DNA of 64,000 bases from an uncultured Dehalococcoidaceae bacterium (GTDB lineage: Bacteria > Chloroflexota > Dehalococcoidia > UBA2979): positions 30,659 through 94,658 of the forward strand of contig CAYZJO010000005.1 of NCBI GenBank assembly GCA_964479165.1. Direction: 5' to 3'. Below the pieces are notes generated by a model. The model was not told the origin of the DNA. It did not search any database and saw only the letters and a list, made by a program, of their open reading frames with translations. Below are positions 8,775-36,234 of the stretch, piece by piece. Made by a program: the position numbers and the translations under genes. How positions within the stretch are numbered: the first letter of the stretch is position 1; the number at the start of each line of letters is the position of its first letter.

Positions 8775-9762
8775 GCCGTTCCTCGGACCGCCTGGTGATC
8801 TCGCGCATCTTCTCGGCGGCGTACGTCCCGAGCAAGAAGTCAGTCAGGCCGCCTTCGGGGATCTGCGAGCCCTTGGCTTCCACCTCGACGCGTCCGACCT
8901 GCCCGGACATGAACGCGTCGTGCTCCATGCTGGTCTGCGCGAGGTAGCGGAAGAGATCCTCGTCGCTCTCGACCTCCGCCAGGTGCTGCTGCAACTCGCG
9001 GAGCGCCTCGCGGTAGCGCTCGAGCCAGTGGATCAACTGGATGCGGTTCGTGACGGCGATGTCGAACGCCATGTCCGGATGCGTGCCGGCGACGCGCGTC
9101 GTGTCCTTGAACCCGCCTGCCGCCAGCACGGACATCTCCGGCCACGCCTCGGAGTCTCGCGCAAGCCGGAACAGCGCCGAGGCGGCGAGCAGCGGGAGGT
9201 GCGAGATGGCGGCGACATAGGCGTCGTGCTCTTCGGCGTCCATGAACCGCGGGACCGCTCCCACGGTCTCCGCCAGTCCGGCGATCGCCTTCACGGCGCC
9301 CTCGGTCGCCTCGACCGACGGGACCACGACCCACTGCGCCCCCTCGAAGAGCTCGGGCGTCGCCGCGGACGGACCGCTGTCCGTCTTGCCCGCCATCGGG
9401 TGCCCGCCCACGAACGAGACGGACCGCGGCACGAGGTTCCGTGCCCAGCGCATGATCTCAGTCTTGGTCGATCCGGTGTCCGTCACCACTGCCCCGGGCT
9501 CGAGCGCGTCAGCGACTTCCTCGAGCAGGTCCTCGACGGCGAGCACTGGGACGGCAAGCACCACCATCGAGGCGCCACGCACGGCCTCGCGAGGGTCGCT
9601 CACGGGCACGTCGATGGCTCCGACGCGCTGCGCCTCGCGTAGGTGGTCGCGGTTGCGGTCGTAGCCGACGACCTCCAGGTCCTTGATCTTGCCGGACGCC
9701 TTGAGTCGCAAGCCGAGCGAGGCGCCGATCAATCCCGTTCCGAGGATGGCGATGCGCGTCAT
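8731..9762 (-). CDS. tyrA: Prephenate/arogenate dehydrogenase
   Basis: IAILGTGLIGASLG, TDTGSTK, VGGHPMAG, EEHDAYVAAISHLP, FKDTTRVA; start ATG 9760-9762. Confidence 0.88.
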   Translation of the reverse strand: MTRIAILGTGLIGASLGLRLKASGKIKDLEVVGYDRNRDHLREAQRVGAIDVPVSDPREAVRGASMVVLAVPVLAVEDLLEEVADALEPGAVVTDTGSTKTEIMRWARNLVPRSVSFVGGHPMAGKTDSGPSAATPELFEGAQWVVVPSVEATEGAVKAIAGLAETVGAVPRFMDAEEHDAYVAAISHLPLLAASALFRLARDSEAWPEMSVLAAGGFKDTTRVAGTHPDMAFDIAVTNRIQLIHWLERYREALRELQQHLAEVESDEDLFRYLAQTSMEHDAFMSGQVGRVEVEAKGSQIPEGGLTDFLLGTYAAEKMREITRRSEERLAELDRKQGDRRDR

Positions 9763-27291: not shown

Positions 27292-27394
27292 GGGTCGACG
27301 GAGGCGACCGCGGGCACCTCGAAAGATCGGGGAACGCACCGAGCCGCCTCCGGAGGTCCCCTACCCCTGCACGGCCCGCGTCCGTCAGGATTAT

Positions 27395-27634
27395 GTGGTG
27401 AAACTCTGGAAGCGTGCCGCCACCGAGCGGACGGAGCCGGCCGAGTCCGAGCGTGAGTGGACGCGACGCCCGCCGGTGCAATGCGCCGGGTGCAAGCGCC
27501 CGTCGGACCGCTACGTATACCTGCAGAACGGTAAGGACTATTGCATCCCGTGTGCGCTGGCGGTGCGAGCGTCGCTGGGCATCCGGCCCGCAGGCCGGCG
27601 CGCGGACGACATCACCGACCTCGATAGCGTGTGA
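27395..27634 (+). CDS. Small C4 zinc-finger protein (CX2C-X16-CX2C)
   Basis: CAGCKRPSDRYVYLQNGKDYCIPC. Confidence 0.55.
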   Translation: MVKLWKRAATERTEPAESEREWTRRPPVQCAGCKRPSDRYVYLQNGKDYCIPCALAVRASLGIRPAGRRADDITDLDSV

Positions 27635-27641
27635 GTTGCTG

Positions 27642-27727
27642 ACGCGGCGCCGGGGAATCGAACCCCGCTGGACTGCGTCTGGCCCCCGAGATAGCGGAGC
27701 GCAGCCTGCTCCCAGAGCTCGCCGCGT
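27642..27727 (-). ncRNA. tRNA-like structured element (non-canonical; possible pseudo-tRNA)
   Basis: 8-bp terminal stem ACGCGGCG/CGCCGCGT, GCTC-TGG-GAGC D-like arm, expanded anticodon-position arm, canonical T-arm CGGGG-TTCGATT-CCCCG; no encoded CCA. Confidence 0.5.
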
Positions 27728-27817
27728 GACCTCTCAAGCGTAGTCGTACCAACCTCAACATCCGGTGCGAGCATCGTCGGGAGGCGCAAGGGTCGCGCCG
27801 ATCGCGGCGATCGCGCA

Positions 27818-28840
27818 CTACCCCGGCCGGCGCTCCTCGACCTCGACCCGCCATGTGTTGATGTCCCCGTGCTCGGGCATCGTCACCCGGAACGCGACAG
27901 CATCTCCCTCGACATAGTCACGGAACGGCACACGCAGGAGCCTGTTCGTCCAGTGCGTCCGCCGGTGCAGCGGCGACGTGTCGAACGCCAGCGTCTCGTC
28001 GAATCTGACGCCGAAGTACACGCAGAATCCGTCCAAACGACCCGCACGCGTGACCGTGCGGGTGGCCTCGACGACGTGCGGCGGCTCGTCGCCGCTGCGC
28101 ATCTCGTTCAGGTCGAACGAGAGCACCGGAGTCGGTTCGCCGAGGAAGTGGCTCACGGACGATGGCAGCGCGTGGATGGACTCGTAGTTCGGCGTCCGAT
28201 AACGCTCGAGGAACGGCTCGTCCTTGAGCATCGAAAAGTCGAGGCCGTGCGGCCGCTGCTCCCAGATGTAGGGAACGCGGTGCTCCGGACACATCTGGAC
28301 CGGCTCGATGAAGAGGTCGAAGTGTCCCGGCAGAATCCTGCCGCCGGGCTTGAGCACGCGCTGCTTCAAGTCGAGGAGGTTCGTAATCATGTTCTCCTCG
28401 AAGAGCGCGTCGCCCATCTGTTCGTGGATGACGAGGTCCACCGGCTCATCGGACACGAAGTCGCGGCTGTTCACCGGTAGGAAGCTGACGTTCTCGACGC
28501 CGTTCGCATCGGCAATGCGTCGCGCGACCTCGATGAATGGCGAGTGGTCGAGCGCGTACACCTGCTTCGCCTGCTGCTGAGCCGCGAACAGCGCGAGGAT
28601 GCCGGTGCCTGTGCCGAGGTCGACAACCACATCGCCCGGACGGACGTGCCGTCGGATGGCCTCGTGATACGAATCCACCCGCACGGCGTCCGCGACCATC
28701 TCTTCGTGGACCTGCAGGCGGGTGAAGTTCTTGCTGTTGTCCACGTCGCTGATGAGGTTGCGAATCGTGGGGTTCGACTTCAGCGTCCGCTTCGCGAACC
28801 TGATCGACGACCGTAGCGCGGCTTGAACAGGAACGGGCAT
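27818..28840 (-). CDS. SAM-dependent methyltransferase colinear with type I protein arginine methyltransferases
   Basis: VHEEMVADAVR, VVDLGTGTGIL, HEQMGDALFEE (double-E loop), LKPGGRILP, TSPLHRRTHW (THW loop); start may lie up to 28897. Confidence 0.8.
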   Translation of the reverse strand: MPVPVQAALRSSIRFAKRTLKSNPTIRNLISDVDNSKNFTRLQVHEEMVADAVRVDSYHEAIRRHVRPGDVVVDLGTGTGILALFAAQQQAKQVYALDHSPFIEVARRIADANGVENVSFLPVNSRDFVSDEPVDLVIHEQMGDALFEENMITNLLDLKQRVLKPGGRILPGHFDLFIEPVQMCPEHRVPYIWEQRPHGLDFSMLKDEPFLERYRTPNYESIHALPSSVSHFLGEPTPVLSFDLNEMRSGDEPPHVVEATRTVTRAGRLDGFCVYFGVRFDETLAFDTSPLHRRTHWTNRLLRVPFRDYVEGDAVAFRVTMPEHGDINTWRVEVEERRPG

Positions 28841-29110
28841 GGCGAGACGGCTCACAATCCAGAGGGCGATGGGGTTCGCCGATCGCGGCGCGCTCAAGCA
28901 CCGGGTTCAAGGGAATTGTCGGCTGCGCAGCGTTCGGGCTACAGCGCCAGGGTTGACCCAAGCTGCGCGGCAACAAGGGCAAGCAAGCATCCATCTCCGA
29001 GTCGCCTGCCCGCACGCGCAGCGTAAAGACCCAACCCTCAACGTCGCGTCCGAGTTGTGTCGGGAGACGCAGGAGTGCGCGGGCGTCGCGTTGAGACCGA
29101 CACTCACGTC

Positions 29111-29470
29111 ATGAGGACGGCGTGGCGCGTGGGTCGGAGTTGGCTAAACGACGAAGCCCATCGCTGGCGATGGGTGCCCGCAGCATGGGCGACCTGGTCG
29201 ATTTGCGCCACGCTGGGGACGTACGTCCCGATCTTCGGCTCGGTGCGCGACGAGAGCTTCGCGATGGGTTACAACCCACTTCCGTGGTTGGCGCTCGGCC
29301 TAGTGGCAGCCGCCGTCAACTGGACGTTCTGGTTCGCGATCGGGTGCGCATCCCAATGGTTCCACTCGGCGCCTGACTACCGGAACGCTCGACGATTGCC
29401 GACCACGATGCACCTCGTGGGGGGTCCAGTTCATCTCCTGTCGCTCCTCGTCTTCTGGGCCTGGCAGTAA
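29111..29470 (+). CDS. Trp-rich hypothetical membrane protein
   Basis: 119 aa with about 12 Trp and several hydrophobic segments. Confidence 0.45.
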   Translation: MRTAWRVGRSWLNDEAHRWRWVPAAWATWSICATLGTYVPIFGSVRDESFAMGYNPLPWLALGLVAAAVNWTFWFAIGCASQWFHSAPDYRNARRLPTTMHLVGGPVHLLSLLVFWAWQ

Positions 29471-29522
29471 CCGACCCTCGCCCCTCCCCGCTCGCGCCGC
29501 CTAAGATCGAGCCAACCCTCGC

Positions 29523-29598
29523 GCCCTCGTAGCTCAGGGGACAGAGCAACGGACTTCTAATCCGCAGGTCGGAGGTTCGAATCCTCCCGAGGGCGCCA
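29523..29598 (+). tRNA. tRNA-Arg(UCU)
   Basis: Full cloverleaf: GCCCTCG/CGAGGGC acceptor, CT-TCT-AA anticodon loop (29556-29558), GGAGG-TTCGAAT-CCTCC T-arm, encoded CCA; TAAGAT -10 at 29502-29507. Confidence 0.97.
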
Positions 29599-29619
29599 CG
29601 AGATTTCCGAGGAGCAGCG

Positions 29620-30507
29620 ATGGCCCCGGCCCGGGACGGCAGCGAGCGTGGCGAGGTGCAGGTCGACGGACGCGTCATCGGCTACCGCGTGGTCCGCAGC
29701 AAGCGCCGCCGCCGGACGTTCGAGATCGCGCTCCGGCCTCGCGAGGGCGTCGTCGTCGCCGCGCCGGCGCGCGCGTCACGTCGCGAGGTGGCGGAGGCGG
29801 TGCTGCGCCACGCCGGCTGGATCCTCCGCACGAGCGAGCGCGCCGAGCTCGAGCCTCGGAGGCCCTTCGCCGACGGGGATCCGCTCCCGTTCCTCGGTGA
29901 GACGCTGGCCCTCGGCATCGAGCGTGGCCGGGTGCGTCGTGCGAGGGCTGAGCGCGTGGGGCAGCGGCTGGTGGTGACGCTGCGGGCGCCCTCTCCTCAG
30001 TCCGCCGAGCGCGGGGATACCCCGCAGGCCTCTCCCTTTATGGGAGAGGAGGCCGGAATCTCCTCGGCTATCAATGGTGCCGAGGTCAGAGCGCTCTCCC
30101 TGTTCGACTGGGGAGGTGCTTCGGTCGCCTCTCTCGCCTTCGACTCCGACTCCGACGCAGACATCGAAACCGCGCTTGAGCGGTGGTACCGCGAGAGGGC
30201 TGCGGAGGAGTTTGCGGCGCGCGTCGGGCGGTGGGCGCCCGAGGTGGGTGCGGCGCCCTCGAGGGTGCTCGTGCGGGCGCAGCGGCGGCGGTGGGGCAGC
30301 TGCGCCGCTGACGGGTCCCTCCGCTTTAACTGGCGGCTGATGCTCGCGGACGCGGACATCGTGGACTACGTCGTGGTGCACGAGCTGGCGCACCTCCTCG
30401 TGCCCAGCCACGCGCAGGCGTTCTGGAACGTGGTCGCGCGCGTGCTGCCGGACCACCGCACGCTGCGGCGGCGGCTGGTTGAGGCAGGGCCTAGCCTGTA
30501 CATGTGA
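29620..30507 (+). CDS. YgjP/SprT-like (DUF45) zinc metallopeptidase with internal insertion
   Basis: RRWGSC, FNWRL, DYVVVHELAHL, HAQAFW; extra about 45 aa near 29995-30150. Confidence 0.88.
   Translation: MAPARDGSERGEVQVDGRVIGYRVVRSKRRRRTFEIALRPREGVVVAAPARASRREVAEAVLRHAGWILRTSERAELEPRRPFADGDPLPFLGETLALGIERGRVRRARAERVGQRLVVTLRAPSPQSAERGDTPQASPFMGEEAGISSAINGAEVRALSLFDWGGASVASLAFDSDSDADIETALERWYRERAAEEFAARVGRWAPEVGAAPSRVLVRAQRRRWGSCAADGSLRFNWRLMLADADIVDYVVVHELAHLLVPSHAQAFWNVVARVLPDHRTLRRRLVEAGPSLYM
30029..30057. repeat. REP-like palindrome family A, intragenic copy
   Basis: CCTCTCCC-TTTAT-GGGAGAGG-AGGCCGGA inside the peptidase CDS. Confidence 0.75.
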
Positions 30508-33816: not shown

Positions 33817-33906
33817 CCCTCCCCCTGCCCAGGGGGCCTGCGACCCGGCGTGTCGGGGCCGACCCGTGCTCACGCTATCATGACGGCGCAGGCCCGGAGG
33901 CATGCG

Positions 33907-36234
33907 ATGTCCCCCTCGGCGGGCCCCGTGCAATCGTTGACCCCCGAGTCGCTGCGCGCGCTCCTCGGCGAAGCGTACGACCGTTACACGTTGGAGGAGC
34001 GACGGCGACACGTCGAGATGCTGCAACGCGTCAGCGCCGCTCGGGATGCCGTGGTCGAGGTCGAGTCGCGCGGGACGGAGGGGTGGCGCGTCACCGTCGC
34101 CGCGACTGATCACGTAGGCCTGCTGGCGAGCATCGCCGGCCTCATCTCCGCCTCCGGCGGCGACATCGTCTCGTGCGACGCCTTCACCCTCCCTCCTCCG
34201 CAGTCCGCGCCGAAGCCGAGCGAGCCGCCCGCGGCGCGCGCTGCACGCGGGCCAGCAGCGCGGCGCTTTCGCGGCGCGCCCGGTCGCGCTGCGAGAGCCA
34301 CGGCCGGCCCCGGCGCCTCGAGCGCATCCTCCGAGCGTGGCCTCATCCTCGACGTCTTCGACATCGCCATGCGGGAGGGCGCCGAGGGCGGCACCGCGGA
34401 CGGCATCGAGGTGTCGTGGGATGCGCTGCCGAGCCTCATCCAAGAGGTGTCCGCACTACTCGGGGAGCGGCGCGCGGACGACGCCCGCGAACGCGTGCTC
34501 ACCCTCGTGTCCGCCCGACCCGAGCCACCCTCTCCCGACGGGGCGGAACAGCTCTACCCCGTCCAAGTCGACATCGACAACGAAACGTCCGACGAGTGGA
34601 CGCAGCTGACGATCCGCTCGGCCGACACCCGTGGCTTCCTCTTCGAGTTCCTCAGTGCGCTCGTGACGCTCGACCTCAGCGTCGCGCGGGCGGAAGTCCG
34701 AACCGTCGACGGCGAGGTGCGCGACACCTTCTGGGTCACCGATGCGCGCGGACGCAAGATCACGGACACCCACCGGCTCGACGAGCTGCGAGTGGCGGCG
34801 GCGTTGATCAAGCACTTCACCCACCTCCTCGGCCGGTCGCCGGACCCCGCGCAGGCGCTCCGACAGTTCGGCTCCCTCGCGCGCTCGACCCTCGCACGCC
34901 CGGACTGGACGTCGCGGCTCTCCGACCTGGAGTCGGAGGACGTGCTCGAGGTGCTGGCGGGGATGCTCGGGGTGAGCCGCTTCCTGTGGGAGGACTTCCT
35001 GCGCATGCAGCAGGAGAACCTCTTCCCGGTCCTCGCCGATGCGCAGGCGCTCGACGGTCGGAAGTCGCGCGACGAGTTCCGCGAGGAACTCGCGGCAGCC
35101 TGTGCCGCTGCCGGTTCGCACGAGGAGGCTGTGCGCCTGCTCAATCAGTACAAGGACCGCGAGATGTTCCGCACGGACCTGCGACACATCACGCAGCGTG
35201 TCGGCTTCCTCGACTTCTCGCGAGAACTCGCGGACCTCGCCGAGGCGGTGGTCTCGGTTGCGAGCGACCTCGCACACCGACGTCTCGCCGCGGAACACGG
35301 CGCTCCGCAGATCGAGGACGGGACCTCGTGCGGCTGGGCGATCGCCGCTCTCGGAAAGTTCGGCGGCCGGGAGCTCGGCTTCGCGTCGGACATCGAGCTG
35401 CTCTTCCTCTACGAGGGCGACGGTCGGACGGAGGGGGCGAAGCCGCTGACGAACGCCGCTTACCACGAGGAGTGGGTGCGCACCGTCCGCGACTCGATCG
35501 CAGCGCGGCAAGAGGGGATCTTCGAGATCGACCTGCGGCTGCGTCCCTACGGGGCGAAGGGAGCGCTTGCGACCTCGGCGGCTGCGTTCGCGGCCTACTA
35601 CTCGGAATCGGGACCAGCGCAGCAATTCGAGCGGCTCGCCCTCGTGCGGCTGCGTCCCATCGCCGGTGACGAGGCGCTCATCGGACGTTTCGTCGCGCAG
35701 CGCGACGACTGGGTGTACTCCGGCGCCCCGATCGATGTCGGCGACATCCTCCACCTCCGCGAGCGCCAATCCGCCGAGTTGGTGCCTTCGGGCCAGGTCA
35801 GCGCGAAGTACAGCCCCGGAGGTGTCGTGGACATCGAGTACTTCGTGCAGGCGCTGCAGATCGAGCACGGACACGCTGACGCCTCGATCCGGGTCCCCGG
35901 AACGCTGGAGGCCGCACAGCGGCTCGCCGACGGCGGTTACGTGCCCGAGTTGTTCGCCGCGAAACTGCAGGACGCCTACGGCTTCCTCCGAAGGCTCATC
36001 GACGCCCTGCGTGTCGACCGCGGTCACGCGAAGGATCTCACCATTCCACCGAGCGACTCGAAGGCGTTCGCCTACCTCGCGCGGCGGCTGTACTTCGAGA
36101 GCCCGGACCACCTCGCGCAGGCCATCGAGGTGCGGATGCGCTTCGGTCGCGCGCTCTGGGAATCGTTCGAACGCCTCCGGCCGGGGTCCGAGATCGGTTT
36201 CCGGCCACCAACTCAGGGTGCGACCCGGCTATAG
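33907..36234 (+). CDS. glnE: Glutamine synthetase adenylyltransferase-like protein with two N-terminal ACT domains
   Basis: ACT-like DHVGLLASIA and DTRGFLFEF...VRDTFWVTD; NTase LGKFGGRELGFASDIELLFLY, IDLRLRPYG, GGVVDIEYFVQ. Confidence 0.8.
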   Translation: MSPSAGPVQSLTPESLRALLGEAYDRYTLEERRRHVEMLQRVSAARDAVVEVESRGTEGWRVTVAATDHVGLLASIAGLISASGGDIVSCDAFTLPPPQSAPKPSEPPAARAARGPAARRFRGAPGRAARATAGPGASSASSERGLILDVFDIAMREGAEGGTADGIEVSWDALPSLIQEVSALLGERRADDARERVLTLVSARPEPPSPDGAEQLYPVQVDIDNETSDEWTQLTIRSADTRGFLFEFLSALVTLDLSVARAEVRTVDGEVRDTFWVTDARGRKITDTHRLDELRVAAALIKHFTHLLGRSPDPAQALRQFGSLARSTLARPDWTSRLSDLESEDVLEVLAGMLGVSRFLWEDFLRMQQENLFPVLADAQALDGRKSRDEFREELAAACAAAGSHEEAVRLLNQYKDREMFRTDLRHITQRVGFLDFSRELADLAEAVVSVASDLAHRRLAAEHGAPQIEDGTSCGWAIAALGKFGGRELGFASDIELLFLYEGDGRTEGAKPLTNAAYHEEWVRTVRDSIAARQEGIFEIDLRLRPYGAKGALATSAAAFAAYYSESGPAQQFERLALVRLRPIAGDEALIGRFVAQRDDWVYSGAPIDVGDILHLRERQSAELVPSGQVSAKYSPGGVVDIEYFVQALQIEHGHADASIRVPGTLEAAQRLADGGYVPELFAAKLQDAYGFLRRLIDALRVDRGHAKDLTIPPSDSKAFAYLARRLYFESPDHLAQAIEVRMRFGRALWESFERLRPGSEIGFRPPTQGATRL

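Follow-up and report, generated by a model that had tools for sequence, protein, structure and literature searches.

In a 64,000-nucleotide stretch of contig CAYZJO010000005.1 from an uncultured Dehalococcoidaceae bacterium (hereafter the window), a gene on the minus strand at 27818..28840 encodes a 340-residue protein which, as our comparisons confirmed, is colinear with eukaryotic type I protein arginine methyltransferases (PRMTs) across both domains. PRMTs are treated as eukaryotic in textbook accounts. A first reading, made from the sequence only, had taken the gene for a genuine bacterial arginine methyltransferase distinct from PrmA. Models and motifs bear this out: the product is a genuine PRMT-fold enzyme, encoded in a bacterial chromosome, with its motifs intact and separate from PrmA. 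It is a further member, from an uncultured lineage, of a prokaryotic PRMT-like family that has been catalogued computationally. Its most probable function is that of a stand-alone, type-I-like arginine guanidino-N-methyltransferase, dependent on S-adenosylmethionine (SAM) and directed at proteins or peptides whose genes lie elsewhere in the genome. Of these points, the substrate class is far less certain than the fold and the arginine-directed chemistry.

Fold and active-site motifs

The gene lies within a longer open reading frame (ORF) with a TTG start (27818..28897, minus strand, 359 residues), whose numbering we use for residues throughout. In an alignment of 32 homologues the family-conserved start is M20, the ATG at 28840, and the identical 340-residue product from this ATG (residues 20–359) has been gene-called on 18 metagenomic contigs; we therefore consider 27818–28840 to be the gene. 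Its assignment as a PRMT-like methyltransferase gene draws on the ORF call, the homologue alignment, an AlphaFold2 model and Foldseek comparisons.

A phmmer search against the PDB had PRMT6 as its best match (E=3.1e-32, 115 bits, residues 58–339), followed by PRMT2 (3e-28), PRMT1 and PRMT3 (both ~1e-24) and CARM1 (6e-21), with PRMT8 matched as well; all 60 matches listed were protein arginine methyltransferases. Sequence identity to the solved eukaryotic PRMTs is 22–30%. Pfam places a PRMT_C domain (PF22528) at residues 211–324 with 29.8 bits against a cutoff of 27, besides generic methyltransferase domains. AlphaFold2, given a 32-sequence homologue alignment, yielded a model (pLDDT 90.5, pTM 0.83) with helices in residues 22–84, a Rossmann domain and a β-rich C-terminal half. 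The best 50 Foldseek matches of this model in the PDB were exclusively to PRMT2, 6, 3, 8, 1 or CARM1 (E~1e-24, TM 0.65–0.80, 313–339 aligned columns). By phmmer, Pfam and Foldseek alike, the similarity to PRMTs is far above chance.

A PRMT β-barrel in the structure prediction had been named beforehand as a test of the arginine methyltransferase assignment, and it is present in the AlphaFold2 model and the Foldseek matches. By Pfam, Foldseek and the secondary structure of the model, this C-terminal barrel is encoded at 27839..28324 (minus strand, residues 192–353), with strands of pLDDT >90 across its length. It includes a predicted dimerisation-arm insert: the model has a short-helix insert at approximately residues 203–238, the expected position of the arm, and PF22528 bears the description 'oligomerization subdomain'.

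The same comparisons bear on the possibility that the protein is a PrmA-type methyltransferase, which modifies lysine in ribosomal protein L11. Three homologues (P0003, P0023, P0025) are named L11 methyltransferases at NCBI and the Pfam PrmA profile matches the window protein with 42.6 bits, but this match is confined to the Rossmann segment (residues 80–188, profile positions 154–256 of 296), the NCBIfam prmA equivalog model (TIGR00406) reaches 38.4 bits where its cutoff is 183, and a PRMT β-barrel makes up the C-terminal half. We regard this explanation as effectively refuted. In the comparison with PRMT1, CARM1 and PrmA by profile models and Foldseek, which the sequence-only reading had proposed, the PRMT matches were full-length and the PrmA models covered the Rossmann part alone, the one part that PrmA had been expected to share.

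Database names reflect both assignments. Many homologues are called 'protein arginine N-methyltransferase 1' or 'type I protein arginine methyltransferase' at JGI; others are listed at NCBI as '50S ribosomal protein L11 methyltransferase' (in addition to the three above, P0238) or 'methyltransferase domain-containing protein'. Because the PrmA models are missed by so wide a gap (38 against 183 bits) and the C-terminal half is a PRMT barrel, the L11 names appear, from sequence comparison, to be a systematic misannotation.

The motifs on which the sequence-only reading was based (HEEMVAD, VVDLGTGTG, VDLVIHEQMGDALFEE, LKPGG, LDGFCVYF...FDTSP and THW) are all found in the translation; the coordinates given in this paragraph are on the minus strand. 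The protein begins with a family-specific basic region (28727..28840, residues 20–57) comprising two predicted helices, H22–41 and H43–57, with on average 7.0 lysines and arginines against 3.2 aspartates and glutamates in 121 sequences. It is followed by the HEEMxxDxVRxxxY helix (28667..28708, residues 64–77), whose HEEMVAD at residues 64–70 aligns with HEEMIAD of PRMT6. The SAM-binding motif I, VVDLGTGTGIL (28595..28627, residues 91–101, of which VVDLGTGTG covers 91–99), and the acidic post-I residue D117 in the subsequent VYALDHS segment align to VLDVGAGTGIL and VYAVEAS of PRMT6. VDLVIHEQMGDALFEE spans residues 153–168 and runs into the double-E loop HEQMGDALFEENM (28388..28426, residues 158–170), which we checked directly on the DNA. 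The two catalytic glutamates are in place, as claimed at the outset: E159 and E168 have a nine-residue spacing, the same as in SEWMGYGLLHESM of PRMT6. LKPGG occupies residues 182–186 and LDGFCVYF...FDTSP residues 288–309. The THW loop (T314, H315 and W316; 27950..27958), aligned to THW of PRMT6, reads ACG CAC TGG on the DNA.

We examined the conservation of these positions in 121 family members that are 45–76% identical to the window protein. E159, E168, H158, Q160, W316, R73, Y77 and the glycines of motif I are found in all 121; D93, G95, G97 and G99 vary little or not at all, and 114 sequences have D117, with glutamate in the other seven. The HEEM helix is similarly well conserved (H64 in 117, E65 and M67 in 119 each, D70 in 120 of the 121 sequences). 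In the THW loop, T314 is retained in 117 sequences and H315, the residue of the window protein, in 91, with serine in 20. Within this alignment, the double-E and THW loops are shown to be under strong purifying selection. M67 and M170 (113 of 121, otherwise leucine) align to the methionines of HEEM and of HESM in PRMT6; we take them to be the two methionines tied to asymmetric (type I) dimethylation, M48 and M155 of rat PRMT1.

Some features of the family might instead suggest a PRMT fold with another acceptor, such as a lysine, an N-terminal amine or a non-protein molecule. H158 and Q160 around the first glutamate and the DHS segment after motif I are specific to the clade, the YFxxY motif is absent, and a few of the longer homologues carry rare and mixed domain fusions (a nucleotidyltransferase, a NUDIX domain or a second methyltransferase). 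A non-arginine acceptor is, however, hard to reconcile with both guanidinium-binding glutamates, their spacing and the THW tryptophan being preserved in 121 of 121 sequences, and we consider it very improbable.

Distribution and origin of the family

The sequence-only reading had treated the motif set as a hallmark of eukaryotic enzymes. This view had to be abandoned, as homologues occur in many bacterial and archaeal phyla. A word-indexed search found 988 of them, with Burkholderiales metagenome-assembled genomes (MAGs), Methanosarcina mazei, Wenzhouxiangella, Nitriliruptoraceae and Salarchaeum among the named hosts. An exhaustive search of 1.84 billion cluster representatives (50% clusters) gave 9,151 matches at E≤1e-3, 4,668 at E≤1e-10 and 254 at E≤1e-30. 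A scan of species-representative genomes with the single protein yielded no close relative, but an alignment-based scan did recover them: at least 165 of these genomes, from many phyla of Bacteria and Archaea, encode one. The hosts comprise many Verrucomicrobiota as well as Planctomycetota, Myxococcota, Acidimicrobiia, Nitrospira, Geobacter, Bacteroidota, Ignavibacteria, Anaerolineales, Methanoculleus and other archaea.

Whether such homologues had already been catalogued was left open at the outset. They have been, both through the PRMT names at JGI and by Aravind et al., as a passage of PMC3417536 indicates. This passage, citing Aravind, Abhiman & Iyer (2011), characterises the radiation of bacterial PRMTs as one of peptide methylases encoded in antibiotic-like operons and places the closest bacterial sister groups in secondary-metabolite operons. 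Full-text literature searches turned up no experimental study of a PRMT-fold protein methyltransferase from a bacterium. Found widely among prokaryotes and already catalogued computationally, the family is, as far as the literature searches show, biochemically uncharacterised.

We computed a neighbour-joining tree of 46 sequences (318 columns, 50 bootstraps), rooted on clade B; here, clade A is the clade of the window protein and clades B and C are other prokaryotic PRMT-like groups. Human PRMT6 is the only eukaryotic sequence in this tree, the other PRMTs having been compared by bit score, and a few sequences derived from tblastn contain frameshifts. Clade A holds together. Within it, the window protein and its 76%-identical relative group at 100%, apart from the other Chloroflexota sequence (Anaerolineales). 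Myxococcota and Verrucomicrobiota form vertical blocks, each at 100%, and several pairings cross taxonomic groups: Geobacter (L003) with methanogens (P0023, L004, L046) at 96%, Actinomycetes with Planctomycetota at 96%, and Pseudomonadales with Verrucomicrobiota at 100%. Old prokaryote-to-prokaryote transfers within the family, both cross-phylum and cross-domain, are likely on this evidence.

In comparisons to PRMT6, the other type I paralogues score 162–193 bits, the window protein 115 bits and PRMT7 and PRMT9 55–66 bits. By these scores, and by the tree with its one eukaryotic sequence, the window protein does not fall within the radiation of PRMT1, 2, 3, 6, 8 and CARM1. By this measure, which is a crude one for distance, clade A would fall a short way outside the eukaryotic type I crown group, at a much smaller distance from it than the type II and III enzymes.

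Since the best matches of known structure are all eukaryotic PRMTs, a recent import from a eukaryote or a eukaryotic contamination of the assembly might be suspected. The identity to these matches is just 22–30%, however, and hundreds of prokaryotic homologues with 45–56% identity form a coherent clade. Human PRMT6 falls outside this clade in the tree, which argues that the window gene is not a eukaryotic import. The GC content at third codon positions (GC3) is like that of the flanking bacterial genes (0.87 for the PRMT gene, 0.75–0.96 for the other called genes of the window), and the same neighbourhood recurs on the 18 contigs and in the 76%-identical relative. We consider this explanation to be effectively refuted as well. 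The window is an ordinary stretch of bacterial chromosome, encoding TrpE, RecQ, HemL, CobA/HemD, a GlnE/GlnD-like protein and a PhoR-type kinase, and the named relatives of its HemL (74–82% identity) are all from Dehalococcoidia or Chloroflexi MAGs.

The locus of the 76%-identical relative (L081) retains the genes for a HEAT-repeat protein and YgjP, the tRNA-Arg, the PRMT gene, the small ORF and the membrane ORF. From the matching GC3 and this synteny, the PRMT gene is a stable resident of its lineage, with no sign of recent transfer; the horizontal acquisition that the sequence-only reading had considered is without local support. The two loci differ by genes for OsmC and an AraC/DJ-1-PfpI regulator, which lie between the PRMT gene and the small ORF and tRNA-Arg in the relative (L081 6002–7771) and are missing from the window (28841–29056), a local indel amid otherwise conserved synteny.

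Genomic context and substrate

The neighbours of the PRMT gene in the window encode an MBL-fold hydrolase, a 180-residue membrane ORF, a 79-residue zinc-ribbon ORF in convergent orientation, tRNA-Arg(TCT), a YgjP-like metallopeptidase and a HEAT-repeat protein; an ORF of 131–137 residues adjoins it in divergent orientation. A scan of 27300–29700 detected neither a sigma-70 promoter nor an intrinsic terminator. We clustered, all against all, the ORFs within 4 kb of the PRMT gene at 48 loci of clade A, and the most widely common neighbour family was present at 5 of them. The clade thus stands alone, with no conserved neighbour. Near the window gene there are no genes of ribosomally synthesised and post-translationally modified peptide (RiPP) pathways, nonribosomal peptide synthetases (NRPS) or diiron oxidases, and inspection of its neighbours showed that it is not inside a secondary-metabolite or RiPP operon. 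An affiliation with defence systems or phages was rejected, the matches being only generic Rossmann ones to mad2 methylase and to phage tRNA and DNA methylases.

Clade C (P0244, P0222, P0238, P0217; 98% bootstrap) branches between clade A and human PRMT6 and, with 125 bits to PRMT6 against 115 for the window protein, is slightly closer to the eukaryotic PRMTs. The genes of P0244 and P0222 lie in RiPP-type clusters (L088 7001–13585 and L089 1173–6484) that contain two to three radical-SAM/SPASM enzymes, a B12-binding radical-SAM enzyme, PqqD, ScmC, small ORFs of 36–62 residues and an ABC exporter. The products of these clusters are candidate arginine-methylated ribosomal peptides. This setting matches the description by Aravind, as far as it is given in PMC3417536.

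The clade C clusters raise the alternative that the window enzyme is itself a peptide arginine methylase of RiPP or natural-product type, with a precursor encoded nearby or elsewhere. Such a function would agree with the antibiotic-like operons described for the bacterial radiation in that passage, with clade C being as near to the eukaryotic PRMTs as the window protein, and with the small conserved zinc-ribbon ORF that adjoins the PRMT gene. We nevertheless consider it unlikely: no radical-SAM, PqqD, NRPS, exporter or protease gene lies beside the PRMT gene in the window or in its relatives, no neighbour is conserved across the 48 clade A loci, and the zinc-ribbon ORF is convergent and confined to this lineage.

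Clade B is found in Achromobacter (L062), Nostoc (L065), Streptomyces (L056, L058, L063), Haliangiales and a Woesearchaeote. Its genes in Nostoc (L065 5917–8916) and Achromobacter (L062 4699–6951) are located beside genes for a diiron oxidase of the heme-oxygenase-like type as well as an aminotransferase. In Nostoc a Rieske domain accompanies the diiron oxidase, and a Rieske-like CPLHH motif is encoded directly upstream in the actinomycete loci L056, L058 and L061. The arrangement recalls, by analogy, the logic of methyl-arginine N-oxygenation by SznE and SznF, in which the bacterial arginine-guanidino methyltransferase SznE/StzE makes N-omega-methyl-L-arginine for the diiron enzyme SznF in streptozotocin biosynthesis (PMC11705231).

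Methylation of free L-arginine, or of another small guanidino compound, is accordingly a further alternative for the window enzyme, prompted by the characterised SznE/StzE and by the gene neighbours of clade B. However, clade B is a different subfamily, with the motifs SEIMGNxADNE and SDSWKH, whose match to any PRMT is at most 63 bits and confined to the Rossmann half, and oxidase or pathway genes are absent from the neighbourhood of the window gene. This makes the alternative quite unlikely.

We therefore return to the arginine methyltransferase acting on proteins or peptides. Because no operon partner is conserved in any phylum, its substrates are expected to be encoded elsewhere rather than to belong to a local pathway. 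By analogy with the eukaryotic enzymes, the protein would dimerise via its arm, E159 and E168 would hold and polarise the substrate guanidinium beside the methyl group of SAM, and the methyl group would be transferred from SAM to it; M67 and M170 may favour mono- and asymmetric dimethyl-arginine as products.

Several observations weigh against this interpretation. The first catalytic glutamate is flanked as HEQ, compared to SEW in eukaryotic PRMTs, and the THW histidine is replaced by serine in approximately 17% of the clade. The YFxxY motif of helix αX is not conserved in the 121 homologues: it is reduced to N54...F58, with N54 (113 of 121) at the position of the first tyrosine and F58 (119 of 121, aligned to a tyrosine of PRMT6), the last aromatic, as the sole position retained. 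Dimerisation and product type are deduced from eukaryotic type I PRMTs by analogy alone, and literature searches found no biochemical data on any member of clade A. Further, of the nearest clades with informative context, clade C seems to act on ribosomal peptides and clade B possibly on free arginine, so that a protein substrate is not guaranteed for the window enzyme.

The sequence-only reading had also drawn attention to three flanking elements, a tRNA-like RNA, a zinc-finger gene and tRNA-Arg. All three exist, but they are neighbours specific to this lineage and their supposed link to the PRMT family did not hold, given that the 48 loci have no conserved neighbour and that the tRNA-like element is found at none of 49 other loci. 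The tRNA-Arg(TCT) (29523–29598) is genuine, with 69.7 bits, and is kept beside YgjP in the relative; that it lies close to an arginine methyltransferase gene seems to be a coincidence. The zinc-ribbon ORF (27395–27634, plus strand, 79 residues, CAGC...CIPC) is in convergent orientation to the PRMT gene; the relative L082 has it at 69% identity, and it matches nothing in Pfam, PADLOC or PHROG. It has a conserved arginine-rich C-terminal tail, GIRPAGRRADDITDLDS.

The tRNA-like element (27643–27726, minus strand, with conservation to ~27745) follows the PRMT stop codon on the same strand after ~90 nt. Over ~105 nt it is near-identical between the window and L081 (~9097–9190), although the adjacent intergenic DNA has diverged and the PRMTs are only 76% identical. 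When folded by hand, the element forms an acceptor stem, a mini D arm and a canonical T arm (CGGGG-UUCGAUU-CCCCG). An over-long anticodon arm completes the fold, and nothing but the 6-nt apical loop of this arm varies. An intron-containing tRNA-Arg(CCG), suggested by this fold, was rejected by ARAGORN at default thresholds, with or without introns; at relaxed thresholds, ARAGORN found only an aberrant cloverleaf with a 6-nt loop. The Rfam matches were below threshold (tRNA-Sec, 21 bits against a gathering score of 47) and the folding z-score of −1.15 was not significant. No tRNA recurs downstream of the PRMT gene at the other loci, and scans of metagenomes, in a collection that evidently does not hold these contigs, found no further copies. 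The element looks like a constrained tRNA-derived RNA that is confined to this lineage and stands outside the biology of the PRMT family.

Elsewhere in the window, a 794-residue ORF (33850–36234, plus strand) combines a GlnD-like C-terminal segment (residues 27–316) with a GlnE-like adenylyltransferase segment (residues 313–764). Every score is far under the equivalog cutoffs, and the architecture is unusual for an enzyme of nitrogen regulation.

Significance and comparison with known systems

Methyl-arginine has been detected in bacterial proteomes, where it is understudied and the writer enzyme is unnamed (bioRxiv 10.1101/2023.06.29.546327; PMC8466066). A type-I-like PRMT that stands alone in many prokaryotic chromosomes is the obvious candidate for the methyl-arginine writer in those lineages. 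As a tentative and broader proposal, the stand-alone clade, spread over many bacterial phyla and over methanogenic and halophilic archaea, might be the missing general prokaryotic writer of methyl-arginine on proteins and, in relation to the eukaryotic type I PRMTs, a free-living sister lineage, distinct from the clades that tailor peptides or methylate free arginine, with its basic N-terminal helix selecting substrates; the tRNA-like RNA might be a new structured RNA. The value lies in the clade as a whole, as a candidate for prokaryotic protein arginine methylation; the window gene contributes a single further member, from an uncultured bacterium. Methanosarcina mazei, Litoribacter ruber, Aquibaculum arenosum, Wenzhouxiangella sediminis and Salarchaeum japonicum are among the carriers that are in culture. 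With one member characterised, the clade would have its first biochemistry, the widespread 'PrmA' misannotation would be put right, and it would become clearer whether the stand-alone, the RiPP-linked or the small-molecule lineage of prokaryotes is closest to the ancestor of eukaryotic arginine methylation.

Among known systems, PrmA has in common with the window protein the class I Rossmann SAM-binding domain; it differs in its N-terminal L11-recognition domain and in having no β-barrel, double-E loop or THW loop. SznE/StzE (UniProt A0A411EW25) exemplifies the reaction we propose, a SAM-dependent methylation of an arginine guanidino nitrogen in bacteria. Clade B shares a HELML helix, motif I and a double-E loop of the same spacing with the window protein, yet has SDSWKH in place of THW and genes for diiron oxidases, Rieske domains and aminotransferases as neighbours. 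Clade C is closer in kind, being prokaryotic with the full PRMT core, including PRMT_C, and scoring ~142–156 bits against the window protein. Its genes are embedded in RiPP-like clusters, whereas the window clade stands alone, is separate in the tree and has an N-terminal extension of its own.

The eukaryotic type I PRMTs differ from the window protein in having SEW rather than HEQ around the first glutamate and the YFxxY motif rather than N...F, and in their accessory SH3, zinc-finger and PH-like domains; the window protein has none of these domains, carries an extra conserved basic N-terminal helix and resides in a prokaryotic host, at 22–30% identity. What the two share is the two-domain architecture, the two type I methionines and the succession of motifs: the HEEMxxD helix, motif I, the acidic post-I residue, the double-E loop of identical spacing, LKPGG, the barrel with its predicted arm insert, the FDTSP segment and the THW loop.

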